A stretch of 64,000 nt of DNA from an uncultured Actinomycetes bacterium (GCA_963821535.1 CAWGEC010000009.1:62010-126009), one strand, 5' to 3'; shown: positions 43,748-53,095, numbered from the stretch's first letter. Notes: generated by a model from the letters alone, not told the origin. Program-made: numbers and translations.

Positions 43748-44664
43748 TCGGCCCGTTCGACCGGGTGCTCGCGGCCACGCTCCCGCTCGTGCCGCGGCCG
43801 GTCGTGCGGCACTTCGCCGACCGGTACATGGCGGGCGAGACGCTGGAGGAGGCCGTGGCCACCGTCCGGCGCCTGAACGACCGCGGCGTGATGGCGACCA
43901 TCGACGTCCTGGGCGAGTTCATCCGGGCGCCTGAGGAGGCCGAGGCGACGGCGACCGAGTACGAGCGGGTGCTGGATGCGATCGCGGCCGAGCGGCTCGA
44001 CGCCAACGTGTCGGTCAAGCTGTCGGCGCTCGGCGCCGAGATCGACCCGGCGCTGGCGGACCGCACGCTCGCGCGGGTCCTGGAGTGCGCCGAGCGCCAC
44101 GGGATCTTCATCCGGATCGACATGGAGCACTCGGGCCTCACCGACCGCACGCTGCGCGTCTACCGCGGGCTGCGGGAGGCGGGCCACGACCGGATCGGCA
44201 TCGTGCTCCAGGCGTACCTGCGGCGCACGATGGACGACGTCCACGCGCTCGCCGACCTCGCGCCGAGCGTCCGCGTCGTGAAGGGCATCTACGTCGAGCC
44301 GGCGGAGATCGCCTACAAGGACCCGGCCGCGATCAACGGGAACTTCGTGCGCATCCTCGACCGCCTGCTGTCCGCCGGGTGCTACGTCGCGATCGCGACG
44401 CACGACCGCGTCCTGATCGAGGAGGTGCTCGCGCTGCTCGACCGCCGCCTCGTGACGCGGGAGGCGTACGAGTTCCAGATGCTGCTCGGCGTCACCGAGG
44501 ACGTCCGTCACCGGCTCGTGGGCGCCGGGCACCGCGTGCGCGTCTACGTCCCGTTCGGCAACGCGTGGTACGCCTACTCCGTGCGGAGGCTCAGGGAGAA
44601 CCCGTCGATCGCCGGCTACGTCGCCCGCGACGTGGTGCGCTCGTTCGTCCCCGGCCTGCGGTGA
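43744..44664 (+). CDS. Monofunctional proline dehydrogenase
   Basis: RYMAGET, SVKLS, RIDME, LQAYL, VKG.Y, IATHD, FQML.G, VYVPFG, RRLRENP. Confidence 0.92.
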   Translation: MIGPFDRVLAATLPLVPRPVVRHFADRYMAGETLEEAVATVRRLNDRGVMATIDVLGEFIRAPEEAEATATEYERVLDAIAAERLDANVSVKLSALGAEIDPALADRTLARVLECAERHGIFIRIDMEHSGLTDRTLRVYRGLREAGHDRIGIVLQAYLRRTMDDVHALADLAPSVRVVKGIYVEPAEIAYKDPAAINGNFVRILDRLLSAGCYVAIATHDRVLIEEVLALLDRRLVTREAYEFQMLLGVTEDVRHRLVGAGHRVRVYVPFGNAWYAYSVRRLRENPSIAGYVARDVVRSFVPGLR

Positions 44665-44684
44665 GTTCGGCGGACGCCCGCCAT

Positions 44685-44888
44685 CTAGTGCCCGGTCTCG
44701 TTCCCCTTGCTCGTGTCGTGGCCGAGCTGGTCGAGCTCGGCGAGGCGGAGCTCGCCGTGGCGGCGAACGGGGTCGCCGGGCGGGAGGTCGGCGATCAGCG
44801 CCTCGAGGCGCTCGGCGATCTGGTAGGCGAACTGCGGCGTCGCGGGCCCCCACAGCGCGTCGATGTCGGTCGTCGTCACCCGTCCCAT
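44685..44888 (-). CDS. Small hypothetical protein (67 aa)
   Basis: [19 protein letters not shown]...; TAATG overlap with the pfkA stop. Confidence 0.55.
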
Positions 44889-45920
44889 TATCCGAAGAAC
44901 GCGCTGGCCTGCTCGTAGAGCTCGTCGGGCACGGTCTTCAGCTCGGCCACCGCGTCGGCGAGCGGGACGGCCACGATCGCGTCTCCGCGCAGCGCCGCCA
45001 TCTGGCCCCACGATCCGGCGTAGACCATGTCGGCGGCCTTGAGGCCGTAGCGCGTCGCGAGCACGCGGTCGTGGGCAGTCGGCGACCCGCCCCGCTGGGT
45101 GTGGCCGAGCGTCGTGACGCGCGTCTCGAACCCGGTTCGCGCCTCGATCTCGCGGCCCAGGGATTCTCCGACACCGCCCAGGTGGACGTGCCCGAACTGG
45201 TCGGTTGTGCCGCTGTCGACGAGCTGCCCCTCGCCGTCCTCGGTGCGGAGCTCCCAGCCCTCGCTGACGACGACGATCGAGAAGTCCTTCCCCTTCGCGT
45301 GCCGCTTTCGGATGAGCTCGCAGCAGCGCTCGACCGTCACCGGCCGCTCCGGCGTCAGGATGACGTCGGCGCCGCCCGCCATGCCCGACATGATGGCGAT
45401 CCAGCCGGCGTGGCGGCCCATGACCTCGCAGACCATCACGCGGTCGTGGGACTCGGCGGTCGAGTGCAGGCGGTCGATGGCCTCGGTCGCGATCGAGAGC
45501 GCCGTATCGAACCCGAACGTGTAGTCGGTGCCGGAGAGGTCGTTGTCGATCGTCTTCGGGACGCCGACGACGTGCACCTGATGCTCTGCGTGAAGCCGCG
45601 CCGCGACGCCCAGCGTGTCCTCGCCGCCGATCGCGACCAGGGCGTCCAGCCCGCGCAGGTGCTCGAGCACGCGCTCGACGCCGCCCTCGACCTTGTACGG
45701 GTTCGTGCGCGACGTCTTCAGGATCGTCCCGCCGCGCGGCAGGAGCCCCGTGACGTCGATCGGCCCGAGGGTCCCGGAACTGGCCCTCGACCAGGCCACG
45801 CCAGCCGTGCAGGACGCCGACGACCTCGTCACCTCGGTCGAAGGCGCGCCGGGCCACCGCCCGGATGACCGCGTTCAGCCCGGGGCAGTCGCCCCCGCCC
45901 GTGAGGATCCCGATCCGCAT
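44888..45920 (-). CDS. pfkA: 6-phosphofructokinase (frameshift near 45775)
   Basis: [46 protein letters not shown]. Confidence 0.93.
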
Positions 45921-45931
45921 CGCGGCGGAGT

Positions 45932-46365
45932 CTAGATCGTTATCCGTTCCCAGCCGTCGTTCTCGAGTCGCAGGCGCTCGATCGCGATCGCCCGCTCGCC
46001 CGGCTCGAGGAGCGACGCCTGGTACTCGGTCACCCAGCAGCGGTGAAGGCGATACGACAGCACCGTTTTGCCGTCCCGATCCAGGATCTCGACGCCGACG
46101 TCCTTGTGGGTGCCGATCGATGACGCCGAGGCCGCCCAGTCCTCGAAGGCGCTGTCGCCGCCCACCGGCCGCTCGAGCGTGACGGGTGCGGACGTCACCC
46201 GCCCGGGGGCCGTGTGCTCGTCGTCGCCGGCGACGGCCCGGTGCGGATAGGTGATCACCTCGACCAGGCGCGTGAGGGGGCTCACGCGGTCGACGCCTGC
46301 GATCGTCTTGCCGTCCCAGGTCACCCGGAAGGAGTGGTGCTTGTGGTGATGGTGGTGCTTCGACA

Positions 46366-46366
<1 letters not shown>
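45932..46366 (-). CDS. Orphan phage tail tube-like protein (T4 gp19/eCIS tube family) with a His-rich N-terminus
   Basis: FRVTWDG..IAG...VS.L....EV..Y, PGR.....[40 protein letters not shown]. Confidence 0.75.
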
Positions 46367-47571
<1,205 letters not shown>

Positions 47572-47587
47572 GGCCCCTCTCCCGAGC

Positions 47588-48603
47588 TTAGAGTCGCATC
47601 CGCGCCGCGGTCAACTGTTCGCGCACCCGTGCTGCCGCGCCGTCGCGCGCGCCGGCATGGTCGAGGCCGAGCAACGCGGCGCCGACAACGGGCGGCCCGT
47701 CCAGGACCGCGACGCGGGCCTGCGGCGCCATGGCTCCGACTCCGGCTCGGATGCGCTCGACGAACGCCGGGTCCTCGGCCCGGAACACGCCGCCGCCGAG
47801 CGTCACGTCGACCTCGGCGCGCAGCAGCCGCAGCCGGCGGAGCGAGGCGACCACCATCGTCACGACCTCGTCCGCGAGCGCATCGACGATCCCGCGGGCC
47901 ACCCGGTCGCCGCGGGCGGCGGCGTCGAACACGCAGCGGCGGCAGCTCGAGCACGACCCGCTCGCGGGCGATGACGCCCTCCCGGATCCCTTCGAGCACC
48001 GACCACGGTCGGCGCACGCCGAAGTGGGCGGGCACGGTGCGCTCGAGCAGGGTGTGCTCGCCACGGCCGTCGCGGCCGCGCACCGCCGCTCCCAGCCCCA
48101 TCTCGCCGATCCAGCCGCCGCCGTCGGCGGCGCCGGGGAACTCACCGACCGCCGGGAACCGGACCGTGCGGCCGCCCGGGCCGACGCCGGTGCAGTTGAT
48201 GCCGGAGCCGCACACCAGACCGACGCCCCAGCCGCGGTCGGTTCCGGCCCGGAGGACGGCGAAGGTGTCGTTTGCGACCAGCTCCGACTGCGGTCCAGCC
48301 GGCTCCCGACAGCACGCGCGCCAGCCGGCGGTCGTCGGAGGGCATGTCGGCGCCGGAGAGCGCGAAGGCGCCCACGTCGGCGACCGGGCCGTTGTCGGAC
48401 GGGATGCCGGCCCGGCGCAGGGCGGCCTCGACCGTCGGCCGGAGCGCGCCCACGACGCCCCCGAGGCCGACGAGCTCGTGCGAGCAGGTCGGGCCCCGGG
48501 CGGTGCCGAGCACCTCGCCCTTCGCGGTGATGAGCGCGACGTCGGTCTTCGAGCCGCCGCCGTCGACCGCCAGCACCGCTGCGCGCGGGCCTCGCCTACT
48601 CAC
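47588..48603 (-). CDS. BadF/BadG-type amino-sugar kinase (CsnK/NAGK-like; frameshifted)
   Basis: AVDGGGSKT, ND.FA, VCGSGINC, TLGGGV, PVVGAALLG. Confidence 0.82.
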
Positions 48604-49636
48604 GCTCGGTCACCTTGGAGGCGAGCGAGTACCCGCCGGGATCGAGCCCGCGGCGGCGGGCGAGGCTCCATGCGAGGAGCTGGGTCGGGATCACGGCCAC
48701 GGCCGGCGCCAGGCACTCGCTGAGCGAGCCGAGCACGATCGCCGGGGCGTCCGCGAGCCTCGCGTCGTTCGGCCCGACCATCAGCACCTGGGCGCCCGCG
48801 CGGCGGAGGTCGTCGGCCATGCCGAGGTCGAGCAGGCGGGTGGCGGCCGCGGTCGAGAACACCATCGCCGCCATCTCCGGCCCGGCCAGCTCGAGCGGCC
48901 CGTGCCGGAACTGCGCCGCCTGGAGCGACTCGGCCGGGAAGCGTGCGGCCTCCTTCAGCGTGAGCGCGCCCATCTCGGCCGCCGCCCGCGCGCCCCCGCG
49001 CGCCAGGAGCGTCAGCACGGGGCGGTCGTCCAGCCAGTCGGCCAGCGTCTCGGCGGTCGCGTCGGCGTCCTGGAGCAGCCGCTCGGCGTCGTCGGCCGCG
49101 GCGGCGGCGCCGTCGTGCGACTCGGCGCCGAGGGCGCCCGCGACCGCGTCCATCAGGACGAGCGTCGCGACGAACGTCATCGTGGACGGGCCGTGCTCCT
49201 CGCCGGCCCGCGTGTCGAGATGGATGTGCGCGAGGGCGGCGAGCGGGTTGTCCGTGCCGTTCGTGACCGCGACGACGGTGGGGCGCGGCGTGCGCTCGGC
49301 GAGCGCCTCGGCGACGCGCACGGTCTCGGCGCTTCGGCCGGACTGGCTCACGCACACGACCAGCGTGTCGGCGGTGACCGCCGGGAGCCGGAAGTGCAGG
49401 AGCTCGGCGGCATCGAGCATCGTCGCGGCGACGCCCGCCGACCCGAGGGCGGTCACGGCCGGGTAGCAGGCGTCGTACGAGCTCCCCATGCCGGTGAAGA
49501 CGATGTGGCCGCGGGCACGCACGGAGGCCAGGGCGTCGGCCTGGTCGAGCGCCGCCTGCCGCGCTCGCCGGATCGCGTCGGGCTGGCCCGCGATCTCGGC
49601 GATGAATCTATCAGGAAACTTTCCTAACGATTCCAT
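48596..49636 (-). CDS. SIS-domain sugar-phosphate isomerase/deaminase (GlmS C-terminal/GlmD-like)
   Basis: EIAGQP, GMGSS, SQSG.S.ET, LTLKE, FRHGP.E, SKVT. Confidence 0.88.
   Translation of the reverse strand: MESLGKFPDRFIAEIAGQPDAIRRARQAALDQADALASVRARGHIVFTGMGSSYDACYPAVTALGSAGVAATMLDAAELLHFRLPAVTADTLVVCVSQSGRSAETVRVAEALAERTPRPTVVAVTNGTDNPLAALAHIHLDTRAGEEHGPSTMTFVATLVLMDAVAGALGAESHDGAAAAADDAERLLQDADATAETLADWLDDRPVLTLLARGGARAAAEMGALTLKEAARFPAESLQAAQFRHGPLELAGPEMAAMVFSTAAATRLLDLGMADDLRRAGAQVLMVGPNDARLADAPAIVLGSLSECLAPAVAVIPTQLLAWSLARRRGLDPGGYSLASKVTERE
49613..49625. promoter_or_regulatory. CsnR-type ROK operator AGGAAACTTTCCT
   Basis: Palindrome matching the Streptomyces CsnR box; TACAAT -10 at 49649-49654, 8 nt before the GH4 GTG. 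Confidence 0.8.
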
Positions 49637-49662
49637 CGCTGGGGAGATTACAATGCCCGGCG

Positions 49663-50934
49663 GTGGAATTGAAGGTCGCCGTCATCGGAGCGGGCAGCAC
49701 CTACACCCCGGAGCTGATCGAGGGGTTCGCCGCGCGCGCCGAGCGGCTCGGCCTCACGGAGCTCTGGCTGCACGACATCGACGCCGAGCGGCTCGACATC
49801 GTGGGCGGCCTCGCCCGCCGGATCATGGACGCCAGGGGCTTCCCCGGCCGGCTCGAGCTGACCGGCGATCGCGAGGCGGCGATCGAGGGAGCGGGCTTCG
49901 TGCTGGTGCAGCTGCGGATCGGCGGGCTCGCCGCCCGGCTGCTCGACGAGACGATCCCGCCCCGGTTCGGCTGCCTCGGCCAGGAGACGACCGGTGCGGG
50001 CGGGTTCGCCAAGGCGCTGCGGACGGTGCCGGTCGTGCTCGACATCGCCGCCGACACGGCTCGCCTCGGCGCCGACGGGGCGTGGCTCCTCGACTTCACG
50101 AACCCGGCGGGGCTCGTGACGCAGGCGCTCGTCGATCACGGGCACCGCGCCATCGGCCTCTGCAACATCCCGATCGGATTCCAGCGCACCTTCGCCGACC
50201 GGCTCGGCGTCGAGCCGGAGCGGGTCGAGCTCGAGCATGTCGGCCTGAATCACCTGTCGTGGGAGCGGGCCGTGACGGTCGACGGCGAGGACCGCCTGCC
50301 CGGCCTGATCGACGTCTTCGCCGACCAGCTCGGCGAGGAGGTCGGCATGCCCGGCGACGTCGTGCGCCTGCTGCGGGCGATCCCGTCGTACTACCTGCGC
50401 TACTTCTACTTCCCCCGCGAGACGGTGGCCGAGCACGAGGCCGAGGGCACCCGGGCCGAGCGGGTGATCGAGATCGAGCGCGAGCTCCTCGAGATGTACC
50501 GCGACCCCGAGCTCAGGGAGAAGCCGAAGCTCCTGGAGGAGCGGGGCGGGGCCTGGTACTCCGAGGCGGCGGCGATGCTCGTGGAGTCGCTGCGTCTGAA
50601 CCGCGGCGACGTCCAGATCGTGAACGTGCGAAACGCGGGCGCCATCCCCAACCTCGACGCGGGCGCCGTGGTCGAGGTGCCGTGCCGGATCTCGCACTCA
50701 GGCGCCGAGCCGCTGCCGCAGCGTCCGCTTCCCCCGGAGATGCTCGGCCTGGTCGAGCAGGTGAAGGCGTACGAGCGCCTGACGGTGACCGCCGCGCTGA
50801 GCGGCGACCGCGGCGACGCCCTGCGCGCGCTCATGGCGAATCCGCTGACGGGCGGGTACGAGACGGCCGCCCCGATGCTGGACGCGCTCCTCGAAGCGCA
50901 CGCCGCGCATCTGCCGCGCTTCCAGGCCAACTGA
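49663..50934 (+). CDS. GH4 NAD-dependent glycoside hydrolase (6-phospho-beta-glucosidase/CsnH-like)
   Basis: IGAGSTYTPEL, GQETTGAGG, FTNP, IGLCN, GLNH, RGGAWYSEAA. Confidence 0.92.
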   Translation: MELKVAVIGAGSTYTPELIEGFAARAERLGLTELWLHDIDAERLDIVGGLARRIMDARGFPGRLELTGDREAAIEGAGFVLVQLRIGGLAARLLDETIPPRFGCLGQETTGAGGFAKALRTVPVVLDIAADTARLGADGAWLLDFTNPAGLVTQALVDHGHRAIGLCNIPIGFQRTFADRLGVEPERVELEHVGLNHLSWERAVTVDGEDRLPGLIDVFADQLGEEVGMPGDVVRLLRAIPSYYLRYFYFPRETVAEHEAEGTRAERVIEIERELLEMYRDPELREKPKLLEERGGAWYSEAAAMLVESLRLNRGDVQIVNVRNAGAIPNLDAGAVVEVPCRISHSGAEPLPQRPLPPEMLGLVEQVKAYERLTVTAALSGDRGDALRALMANPLTGGYETAAPMLDALLEAHAAHLPRFQAN

Positions 50935-51148: not shown

Positions 51149-53095
51149 ATGCCGACCTCGGGCACCGCGCCGCTTTCACCCGACCTGCCGCTCGAGGATC
51201 CCGCCGACGACCGGCTCGGATACGTCCGCTTCTCCCGGCTGATCGCAAACGCGATCGCGTCGATGGTGCCGGTCGACGGCCTCGTGCTCGGCCTCCACGG
51301 GCCGCGCGGCGCGGGGCGGACGTCGGTCGCGAACTTCGTCCGGCGGCACCTGGAGGACGTCCCGCACACGGTCGTGTCGCAGTTCAACCCGTGGCGGTAC
51401 GCGCCGGGCGACGACATCGCCCGCCGGTACCTCTCGGCGCTCGTGCCCGTGCTCGCACCCGGCGTTGATGCGGGCGGCGACCCGGCGGCGACGCGCGTCG
51501 CCGCGGCCGAAGTGCTGCGCCGCGAGCGCACGCGGCATGTGGTCGTGATCGACGACCTCGACCGGGTCGCCCCGGAGCGGGTGGCCGAGATCGGGCGGCT
51601 GGTGTCGGCCGTGACCGATCTCCCGAACGTCGTCCACCTGATCGTGCTCGAGCGCACGGCCCTCGGCGAGTCCGACCTCGAGCGGGTCGTGCAGGTGCCG
51701 TTCGACCTCCCGCTGCCGGAGGGGCTCTCGCAGATGCTGTTCGACGACCTCCGCGCGCTGATGGCCGCGAACCCGCACTCGTCGGCGGTCACCGACGAGC
51801 ACTGGGACCAGATCTTCTCGCCGGGCATCGAGACCCTGATCGAGACGCCCCGCGACATCGTGCGGCTGATGAACGTGCTCCGCCTCACATACCCGCCGGT
51901 GTGCCGGGAGCTGAACCCGGTTGACTTCATCGCGATCGAGGCGATCCGGGTGTTCCTGCCCGAGCTCTACGACACCATCCGCCGCCACCCGAACATGTTC
52001 GCGGGCGAGCCGCGGGCGGTCGCCGTGGCCGGGACGGCCGCAGCCGGCCGCGAGTTCCATGACGCCTGGTCGGCCGAGCTCCCGGAGCGCCTGCGCGAGG
52101 CCGCCCAGACGCTGATCCTGCGGCTCTTCCCGGCCGTCCCCGACTTCCCGGGATCGGTGGTGAGCCGCGACATGAGCGGGAACACGCGCCAGGAGCTGCA
52201 CGTCGCGAGCCCCGAGCTGTTCGACGCCTACTTCCAGTTCGTCGTCCCCGAGACGACGGTCTCGAACGCCGAGATGGACGCGCACATGTCCCACCTCGAC
52301 GACCGGGCGGCGTTCGCGGCGCTGCTCCTGCGGCTGGCGTCCGAGCGCGACTCGTCGGGCGCGCCGCGCGTGACGGGCTTCCTGGAGCGCCTGCGCGACG
52401 CCGTCCCGACGCTCGACGCGGAGCGAGCCGCGAACGGGGTCGGCGGCCTGCTCGCGGCGGGCGACGATCTGCCCGACCGCCAGAGCGCCGTCGCCCTCAC
52501 CGTCGCGCTGCTGCGCCAGATCCCGCCGGCGGCAAGGCGCGAGCTGATCTACCGCGGCGGCGTCTCGGGCGGCATCGCGACGGCGGCCGCCGTCACCGTC
52601 GCGCTGGGCCAGGAGCACGGCCGCCACGGCGCCGATCCCCTGGAGCCGGAGGACCGGCGGCTCATCTCGGCGGTGGAGCTCGAGCAGCTCGAGCAGGCCG
52701 TCCTCGGCCGCCTGCGCCAGTACGCCGAGTCGGGCCGGCTGGCCATGTCGCCCGACCTGCCCGCTCTGCTCGCGGCGTGGCGGGCGTGGGACGCCGACGG
52801 CTGCCCGCGCTGGGTCGCGTCGGCGATCCAGCGCGACGACACGCTGGCCCGGATCGTCTCCGCCTTCGTCGTTCGCGTTCGCAGCGACGGCGGCCCGGCG
52901 CGCGGCCCGCACGGAAGCCTGCGCCTCGACCCCGAAGCCCTGCGGCCGTACATCGCGCCCGAGGCCGTCGTCGACCGGATCCGGCGGCTGGCGCGCGACA
53001 ACACGCTTGGCGGCGAGGTCACCGTCGCGCTCGATCAGTTCGTGCTTGAGTATGAGCTGCGGCAGGAGGGGGCCGCCGAGCTCGACGAGGTATAG
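51149..53095 (+). CDS. KAP-family P-loop NTPase with variant Walker A
   Basis: DRLGY..F, LHGPRGAGRTS, FNPW, VVIDDLDR, LERVVQVPF.LP, TPRDIVR; leaderless TAGAAT promoter. Confidence 0.85.
   Translation: MPTSGTAPLSPDLPLEDPADDRLGYVRFSRLIANAIASMVPVDGLVLGLHGPRGAGRTSVANFVRRHLEDVPHTVVSQFNPWRYAPGDDIARRYLSALVPVLAPGVDAGGDPAATRVAAAEVLRRERTRHVVVIDDLDRVAPERVAEIGRLVSAVTDLPNVVHLIVLERTALGESDLERVVQVPFDLPLPEGLSQMLFDDLRALMAANPHSSAVTDEHWDQIFSPGIETLIETPRDIVRLMNVLRLTYPPVCRELNPVDFIAIEAIRVFLPELYDTIRRHPNMFAGEPRAVAVAGTAAAGREFHDAWSAELPERLREAAQTLILRLFPAVPDFPGSVVSRDMSGNTRQELHVASPELFDAYFQFVVPETTVSNAEMDAHMSHLDDRAAFAALLLRLASERDSSGAPRVTGFLERLRDAVPTLDAERAANGVGGLLAAGDDLPDRQSAVALTVALLRQIPPAARRELIYRGGVSGGIATAAAVTVALGQEHGRHGADPLEPEDRRLISAVELEQLEQAVLGRLRQYAESGRLAMSPDLPALLAAWRAWDADGCPRWVASAIQRDDTLARIVSAFVVRVRSDGGPARGPHGSLRLDPEALRPYIAPEAVVDRIRRLARDNTLGGEVTVALDQFVLEYELRQEGAAELDEV

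Follow-up and report, generated by a model that had tools for sequence, protein, structure and literature searches.

The window analysed here, the whole stretch of 64,000 nucleotides from an uncultured Actinomycetes bacterium (GCA_963821535.1, CAWGEC010000009.1:62010-126009; genome G000 in our set), carries on its minus strand an open reading frame (ORF) of the phage tail-tube family, whose product we refer to as P0001. The gene lies between msiK, which encodes the ATPase of a sugar ABC transporter, and pfk, which encodes 6-phosphofructokinase (Table 1). It is an orphan: there is no injection machine in the genome. We describe below the identity of the tube gene and its setting, its conservation in related genomes, its standing among other tube genes without a contractile injection system (CIS), and the role that it may have acquired.

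Table 1. Features of the msiK-tube-pfk region, in window coordinates
Feature	Position	Strand	Basis
Standalone tail-tube-family gene (P0001), 144 aa	45932-46366	-	Translation, PF06841, TIGR02241, AlphaFold2 model, Foldseek
Clade-specific His/Lys-rich N-terminal tail, codons 1-11, [11 protein letters not shown]	46334-46366	-	Alignment
TGATG, ATPase stop overlapping the tube start codon	46364-46368	-	Sequence
Tube stop TAG and 11-nt spacer	45921-45934	-	Sequence
6-phosphofructokinase gene (pfk), one extra G in the assembly	44888-45920	-	PF00365
MsiK/UgpC/MalK-type sugar ABC transporter ATPase gene (msiK), 401 aa	46366-47571	-	ABC_tran and OB_MalK
BadF/BadG-type (NagK-like) sugar kinase gene, two 1-nt insertions in the assembly	47588-48603	-	PF01869 (ortholog)
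Double-SIS sugar-phosphate isomerase/deaminase-like gene, first of the co-oriented run	48596-49636	-	PF01380
Divergent GH4 glycoside hydrolase gene	49663-50934	+	PF02056 and PF11975

Identity and setting of the tube gene

An earlier reading of the window made from its letters alone, here called the sequence-only reading, had proposed a 144-residue ORF with the motifs of T4 gp19 and of extracellular contractile injection system (eCIS) tubes. Translation bears this out. The protein begins [11 protein letters not shown], its two ends read [19 protein letters not shown]...[11 protein letters not shown], and the motifs FRVTWDG, PGR, VTLER, FEDWA, YRLHRCW and LENDGWER are found as listed there; the end of the gene had been placed at 46368, which takes in two extra bases from the upstream TGA, and the coding sequence ends at 46366. 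The assignment to the gp19/eCIS tube family was likewise confirmed, since both curated cut-offs are exceeded: P0001 matches PF06841 (Phage_T4_gp19) over positions 3-134 of the 134-position profile (E 1.1e-25; 90.5 bits, cut-off 28.2) and TIGR02241 with 78.2 bits (cut-off 62.4), and among the PHROGs it falls in a tail tube family (2e-08). The cut-offs of the NCBIfam models CIS5_fam (inner tube adaptor; 46.2 bits against 260) and CIS1_fam (inner tube; 31.5 bits against 220) were not reached, and there was no Hcp-family match, PF06841 being the sole Pfam family at E <= 1.

The AlphaFold2 model of P0001, built on an alignment of 35 relatives, has a mean predicted local distance difference test score (pLDDT) of 83.3 and a predicted template-modelling score (pTM) of 0.74, with disorder restricted to the first ~10 residues, where the tail has a pLDDT of ~51. 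Foldseek retrieved 54 Protein Data Bank (PDB) chains at E <= 0.001, headed by CIS or phage tube chains. The best solved matches are the CIS tubes 7adz_1a, 7b5h_AN, 6j0n_n, 9gtp_a, 6rao_F and 6j0b_a (TMq 0.68-0.72), and phage tubes and Hcp (6bdc, TMq 0.57) follow at lower ranks. A profile search of PDB sequences returned 9r9h_B (8.5e-18) and 7adz_1a (2.5e-16). Membership of P0001 in the T4-gp19/CIS tube family is secure, and the predicted fold agrees with it. The suggestion that P0001 is a truncated tube without N-terminal arm and loops was ruled out, as the solved tube 7adz_1a is just as compact.

The junctions on either side of the tube gene are as the sequence-only reading had described them. 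The minus strand reads CTGATG at 46369-46364, so that the ATPase stop codon (46368-46366) and the tube ATG (46366-46364) have one base in common, and the pfk ATG at 45920 lies 11 nt past the tube TAG. Among the neighbouring genes, the msiK ortholog scores 458.5 bits on NF008653 (cut-off 432) and an intact 343-aa pfk ortholog 442.5 bits on TIGR02483 (cut-off 430.55). The intact 337-aa ortholog of the kinase matches PF01869, with a match to NagK_SO3507 under the cut-off, and the double-SIS gene matches the models for the GlmS C-terminal half, NagB-II and GlmD, all under their cut-offs. Each of the four other genomes with the tube gene that were searched has one copy of pfk, and the two matches in G000 are the pieces of one broken copy. 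The break in pfk is one extra G in a run of G near 45775, and the kinase gene has single-base insertions near 48293 and 47933. As both genes are intact in relatives, and as the G000 assembly reaches only 60% marker completeness despite its 14 contigs, these frameshifts are probably residual assembly indel errors and not the mark of pseudogenes. A promoter and terminator scan of 44400-50200 gave 0 and 0 hits, where shuffled sequences would give 0.1 and 0.8, and is uninformative because the genome has 72% G+C.

Conservation in the genus and absence of an injection machine

To place the locus among its relatives we used 31 genomes of one Gaiellales genus, all of them metagenome-assembled, in which the carriers of the tube gene include the window genome and the unpublished genome G016; nothing rests on G016 alone. 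An ortholog with 58-87% identity is present in 10 of the 31. The family search splits the genus in the same way, with 10 genomes that have exactly one tube match, the msiK-linked gene, 14 that have a canonical CIS, with two or more tube matches beside a ~520-aa sheath and without the msiK-linked gene, and 7 that have no tube match. The order SIS gene, kinase gene, msiK, tube gene, pfk recurs in all ten carriers, as does the TGATG overlap (eight of eight loci, together with G045 and G046), and the spacer between tube gene and pfk measures 10-22 nt in the eight loci where it was determined; the setting is thus not peculiar to the contig on which the sequence-only reading found it. In genus genomes without the tube gene, pfk is 76-79% identical and lies among unrelated genes, and the best msiK homologue (68-70%; three loci inspected) adjoins neither a tube gene nor pfk. 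Beyond the genus set, the clade comprises ~40 clusters of 138-144 aa in a large protein collection. A search at E <= 1e-5 gave 41 proteins, all except one 58-92% identical, and in an exhaustive search identity outside the clade did not exceed 49%, which leaves a gap from the clade members.

The tube gene is intact in every carrier, including those whose assemblies have indels in the neighbouring genes, and an alignment of 35 clade sequences has 21 invariant and 39 nearly invariant columns out of 144. Its median omega is 0.37 (range 0.22-0.52; dS 0.17-0.99; 28 pairs), compared with 0.15 for msiK (15 pairs), 0.14 for pfk (21 pairs) and 0.06 for the canonical CIS tube of sister genomes (27 pairs). 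These are pairwise Nei-Gojobori values, obtained by simple counting in a genome with ~95% G+C at third codon positions (GC3); the frameshifted loci (msiK in L004 and L010, pfk in L003) were excluded, and genes were called with an ad hoc GC3 filter and not with a gene finder. The tube gene is under purifying but relaxed selection, and is about six times less constrained than the tube of a working CIS. The sequence-only reading had named decay of the gene as an outcome that would tell against it; with ten intact copies and an omega of ~0.37, we see none.

A trait that sets the clade apart is its N-terminus. Clade tails start with MSK, continue with a run of His, Lys and Arg containing a few Asp or Gly, and end in HKH(H/G)S; in place of this tail, the tubes of CIS clusters and the other standalone tubes usually have a DP(Y/F)xxF segment. 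Counted over the 11-12 residues that precede the first strand, the median is 4 His in the clade (39 sequences, including fragments) and 0 in the equivalent stretch of 124 other family members, only one of which has three or more. The window protein has 7 His in its first 11 residues, which the sequence-only reading took for a natural His-tag. The His-rich tail is indeed there, and close relatives have 5-7 His; distant members have 2-3 His and four Lys/Arg, so that only the nearest relatives have a pure His run and the trait conserved throughout the clade is a cationic, His-rich flexible tail. Contamination by a vector His-tag was ruled out, as the tail varies naturally over ~40 environmental sequences and is not of vector type.

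Upstream of pfk there is a further conserved element. The hexamer TAGACT (45929-45934, minus strand), whose TAG is the tube stop codon, lies 8 nt before the pfk ATG, and eight of eight carrier loci have it 8-9 nt upstream of the pfk start codon. TAGAAC stands at the same distance in five of five genomes without the tube gene (L028-L032), where the neighbours of pfk are different. The consensus TAGA(A/C)(C/T) is conserved upstream of pfk with or without a preceding tube gene and, being present where the context of pfk differs, belongs to pfk and has moved along with it. In actinobacteria the -10 element has the form TANNNT, and by analogy the motif may be the -10 element of a leaderless pfk transcript. 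Since pfk has this conserved upstream motif of its own, co-transcription of the tube gene with pfk is not established. The sequence-only reading had the tube gene co-expressed with both sugar catabolism and glycolysis. The part concerning msiK is well grounded in the TGATG overlap of all ten carriers, which would couple translation of the tube gene to that of msiK; the part concerning pfk is less certain in view of the motif.

The evidence that the tube gene has no machine to serve comes from family searches at several scales. It is the only PF06841 match in G000, and the sheath gene that adjoins the tube gene in a CIS is replaced by msiK on one side and pfk on the other in every carrier. The baseplate families gp25 and Baseplate_J, and also Pvc16_N, for which there was no positive control, were found in none of five carrier genomes, namely G000 and four with 91-100% completeness, whereas the gp25 search, run as a positive control, did recover that family from five of five sister genomes with a CIS. 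When the 16 ORFs of the CIS region of the sister genome G004 were compared with G000 by tblastn, only the sheath and one generic ORF found a match. Within the window, a Pfam scan of 59 ORFs detected no sheath, baseplate, spike, capsid, phage or CIS family. Both the orphan status of the gene and the lack of sheath, baseplate, spike and capsid genes in the 64 kb, as claimed by the sequence-only reading, are upheld by these results.

Freedom from sheath genes holds for the window and not for the genome as a whole. The sole PF04984 match in G000 is a 344-aa sheath-like gene outside the window, on contig C13 (C13:21731-22765; L053:9732-10766, plus strand). Its product holds both sheath domains (PF04984 and PF17482) and is 45% identical over 255 aa to the sheath of genome G038 and 41% identical over 228 aa to the 515-aa sheath of G004. 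There is no tube or baseplate gene beside it. PF04984 detects the sheath-like gene in seven of the ten carriers and, in the 21 other genus genomes, detects none outside a CIS cluster; neither PF04984 nor a protein search found it in G046 (93% complete), G017 or G016. It is intact and 70% identical in G012 and G023, and its neighbours are unlike between G000 and G012. The gene that follows the sheath-like gene on C13 encodes a 544-aa protein rich in Gly, Thr, Ala and Val, with no Pfam family.

As PF04984 overlooks some true sheaths, for example the 739-aa sheath beside the tube of G038, sheath absence near standalone tubes was checked in three ways: by tblastn with four sheath proteins, by Pfam analysis of flanking ORFs, and by a search of five genomes with the G038 sheath protein, the last without a positive control of its own. 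Protein searches are less sensitive here than family searches, since the search with the orphan sheath protein overlooked a locus in G008 that PF04984 had found. The canonical CIS of the genus, represented by L051 (G004:C5:763600-783590) and by 13 other genomes, has a 515-aa sheath, a 146-aa tube and a 132-aa ORF, together with a second tube domain (at the end of a long frame rich in Lys, Glu and Ala), a LysM-like protein, gp25 and a baseplate J-like protein. Copies of its tube in different species share 96-100% identity, with an omega of 0.06.

The msiK-linked tubes are monophyletic in two trees (SH-aLRT 99 and 100) and sit on a long stem of 1.1 changes per site, next to a group of G038-type tubes. 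That group includes tubes that lie directly after the sheath in full clusters, in G038 itself and at an Acidobacteriaceae locus (L027), and this placement indicates that the tube gene descends from the CIS tube of another lineage. Descent from the CIS tube of its own genus was ruled out, the two being only 23% identical and distant in the tree. The stem suggests that the gene changed fast once it was separated from its CIS cluster.

Standalone tubes in the Thermoleophilia and known tube systems

We then compared the locus with tube genes across the class, in a sample of 301 Thermoleophilia genomes consisting of G000 and 300 evenly sampled genomes of at least 80% completeness. PF06841 gave 56 matches in 35 of the 301. 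A match was counted as clustered if its contig had a PF04984 match no more than ~10 kb away or if a CIS family (sheath, gp25, Baseplate_J, Phage_base_V or CIS_tube) occurred among the flanking ORFs; by that rule 30 matches are clustered and 26 standalone, and 17 of the 35 matched genomes have solely standalone copies. In five such standalone-only genomes (93-100% complete) no sheath was found by PF04984 or with the G038 sheath protein, the latter search having no positive control. Placed on the tree, changes between the clustered and the standalone state number at least two, and five at most parsimony. With 26 of 56 matches standalone, orphan status as such is common in the class.

Standalone tubes have housekeeping genes as neighbours; three genomes of a single genus, for instance, have MeaB and a PLP enzyme on one flank and DUF72 on the opposite flank. 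In nine of the first 18 standalone loci examined (L064, L065, L067, L070, L072, L074, L075, L076 and L077; for example L067:6496-6867, minus strand) the tube gene adjoins a conserved ORF of ~120 aa without Pfam family, which lies directly upstream or downstream, shows 40-88% identity among its copies and falls only in 'hypothetical protein' clusters of the ESM Atlas. The pair looks like a two-gene module. No match to the ~120-aa ORF was found in G000, and the window clade is set apart by its His/Lys tail, by having no such partner and by being inserted between msiK and pfk.

Two other arrangements were seen among the class loci. In G319, the tube ORFs at L081:5899-6606 and 6616-7023 (minus strand) and L082:5938-6501 (plus strand) have a hydrophobic start resembling a signal peptide or transmembrane segment, which suggests that they are exported tube-like proteins. 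At L091:4431-5429 (minus strand) and L092:4903-5952 (plus strand) the tube domain occupies about the first 150 residues of frames of 333-350 aa with no other Pfam family, which could be fusions or simply long open stretches between two stop codons.

The tail-tube proteins known to us all belong to phage tails, tailocins, CIS or type VI secretion systems (T6SS). P0001 resembles the solved CIS tubes, namely AlgoCIS Alg1 (7adz), Anabaena All3324 (7b5h), Pvc1 and Pvc5 (6j0b, 6j0n), Afp1 (6rao) and those of S. coelicolor (8bl4, 9gtp), in Pfam family, in predicted fold and in its predicted lateral strand-to-strand contact, and it is similar in size to the AlgoCIS tube 7adz_1a (142 aa), with which it aligns over residues 9 to 136 without large gaps. 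Unlike them, it has no adjoining gene for a sheath, baseplate, spike, tape measure or CIS ATPase; it has the His/Lys-rich tail in place of DP(Y/F)xxF and sits in a sugar-catabolic run, and its non-synonymous sites have changed about six times faster than those of sister-genome CIS tubes. Phage T4 gp19, the founder of PF06841, is matched over the whole profile and its fold is recovered (5w5f_A, TMq 0.59), but it is much more distant than the eCIS tubes, and P0001 does not lie in a prophage, there being no phage family in the window.

A further comparison is with the orphan hcp genes of T6SS (cf. PMC13098142), which serve a T6SS encoded elsewhere in the genome and mostly have vgrG or effector genes as neighbours. 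Like P0001, they encode a tube-fold ring protein apart from the main machine; unlike them, P0001 has metabolic neighbours and no machine in its genome. The other standalone tubes of the Thermoleophilia (L064-L077, L079-L082 and L090-L092) share with P0001 the housekeeping setting and have no CIS gene within ~4.5 kb. They differ in that nine carry the ~120-aa partner and a normal N-terminus, of which the window clade has neither, and the window clade, a separate lineage in the tree, is the only standalone lineage joined to msiK and pfk. Full-text literature searches found no published account of standalone tube genes, and PMC12210884, searched by terms, does not mention orphan or incomplete systems.

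Predicted self-association and possible role

The sequence-only reading had envisaged a ring- or filament-forming protein, and ring-type self-association is predicted. A four-copy model of P0001 scores 0.59, against 0.00 for the best of three controls, the runs agree in at least 81% of contacts, and the pLDDT of the partner is 78 or higher. A single copy is in contact with two neighbours by different faces, head-to-tail, residues 27-37 with 111-122, which is what a ring or an open arc of tube subunits would be predicted to show. Among proteins of known structure, 20 of 30 solved as same-chain pairs attained this mark, as did 1 of 23 solved as single chains, counts that are only roughly valid here because the model used its own alignment and four copies. 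As tube hexamers are present in the PDB, the pass may reflect likeness to known structures and not retained binding.

The reading that we prefer is that P0001 is an exapted inner-tube protein of a CIS, the machine having been lost from this sub-clade and the tube gene kept, and that it forms rings and binds through its tails. The tube gene would be the fourth cistron of a run that begins with the SIS isomerase, NagK-like kinase and MsiK-like ATPase genes and is followed by the single pfk. Ribosomes that end msiK could restart at the overlapping ATG, so that tube protein would be made whenever the sugar-uptake ATPase is made. The product is predicted to fold as a tube subunit, and subunits may join laterally, strand 27-37 to strand 111-122, as in hexameric tube rings, each extending a flexible N-terminal tail rich in His, Lys and Arg. 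With no sheath partner nearby and no baseplate, P0001 would be unable to inject anything. It could instead form a ring or short tubule in the cytoplasm and bind a metal or an anionic partner with its cationic, His-rich tails, a role that would have some connection with sugar uptake and glycolysis; for His-rich tails that bind metal, the proteins of HypB, Hpn and SlyD type are presumably the relevant comparison. That P0001 is an exapted standalone tube protein under selection we think very probable, whereas the ring with binding tails as its specific role is doubtful; the reading as a whole falls between the two and is, in our judgement, evenly balanced.

Several observations weigh against it. 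Residues of the predicted interface are not significantly more conserved than the others (mean entropy 0.72 versus 0.85; permutation p = 0.15), and constraint looser than that of msiK, pfk and true CIS tubes would also fit slow decay or fast adaptation. The ten carriers are not independent observations, being close kin of one genus. Because pfk has its own motif, the link of the tube gene to glycolysis may be only positional, and the frameshifts in neighbouring genes could be real decay of the locus in this single genome. Metal binding pure and simple is weakened as a function by the way the His run gives way to K/R-rich tails in distant members.

Some of these observations would be expected if the gene were a hitch-hiking relic, the remnant of a lost CIS that is kept mainly because codon overlap pins it between msiK and an essential single-copy pfk, with a protein that does little. 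The tube omega of 0.37, against 0.15 in the neighbours and 0.06 in working CIS tubes, agrees with such a history, as do the long stem branch of the clade, the want of a conserved partner gene beside the tube, unlike other standalone tubes of the class, and an interface that is not specially conserved. A neutral insert of 435 nt should, however, have been lost or shortened in some of ten species, and the tube is intact in all ten carriers, even where the neighbours have indels. With dS reaching 0.99 its omega lies far under 1, the alignment has 21 invariant and 39 nearly invariant columns, and a new clade-specific N-terminal tail was gained and then kept. We regard a relic as distinctly unlikely. 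Faster evolution than in structural tubes, with loops 39-52 and 80-87 the most variable, could also be the signature of an anti-phage decoy, in which the host tube subunit co-assembles with the growing tail tubes of infecting myophages and poisons them; a standing defence would be well served by steady expression from a housekeeping operon, and the tube-type lateral interface is kept in the model. The surroundings of the gene offer little for such a role, as its neighbours are metabolic, with no defence genes around it in Pfam scans of the window ORFs (no PADLOC scan was made), and its gene order is stable and not island-like. We know of no phage of these hosts, and a decoy seems to us improbable.

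The orphan sheath-like gene raises a different prospect, that tube and 344-aa protein together form a sheath-tube filament without a baseplate. The two genes occur together in seven of ten carriers, whereas the 14 sheath matches in the 21 other genomes all lie beside CIS tubes; the sheath-like protein has both sheath domains, it is intact and 70% identical in G012 and G023, and its closest lineage is, as for the tube, the G038 type (45% versus 41%). Against a two-part system, tube and sheath-like gene are never linked, being 817 kb apart on one contig of G013, the sheath-like gene has other neighbours in G012 than in G000, and the gene was not found in G046, G017 or G016, the first of which is 93% complete, either with PF04984 or by protein search. 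The co-occurrence may be mere shared descent, and we consider a filament of this kind improbable.

An exapted tube protein retained in its own right thus remains the reading that we favour. Under it, selection would have preserved the tube homologue itself, in a genome without the machine and in at least ten species, with its start apparently fused into the translation of a core carbon-metabolism run. If standalone tubes have cellular roles, they would be a new case of domesticated phage structural parts and a natural self-assembling ring scaffold. A wider proposal, that tail-tube proteins became machine-free cellular rings or tubules several times in the Thermoleophilia and that the msiK-linked clade is one such case, a cytoplasmic ring produced along with the sugar-uptake ATPase whose six His/Lys-rich tails organise or regulate sugar import and entry into glycolysis, is unlikely; if true, it would provide the first tail-tube homologue with a housekeeping role. 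For annotation, a 'phage tail protein' label should not be taken as the sign of a prophage or of a CIS in these genomes.

The rest of the window is of an ordinary kind. Past the divergent GH4 gene lie a ROK regulator and a sugar ABC transporter without an ATPase of its own, and the other window genes are housekeeping genes such as ilv/leu, aminotransferases, sulfite reductase, exonuclease VII and others. A 249-aa protein (4078-4827, minus strand) has a weak B_lectin match and a match to Peptidase_C70, the AvrRpt2-like papain-fold proteases. Just past GH4, a 648-aa KAP-family P-loop NTPase is encoded at 51149-53095 (plus strand), and it occupies the same place in G012 (L024:1315-3408).

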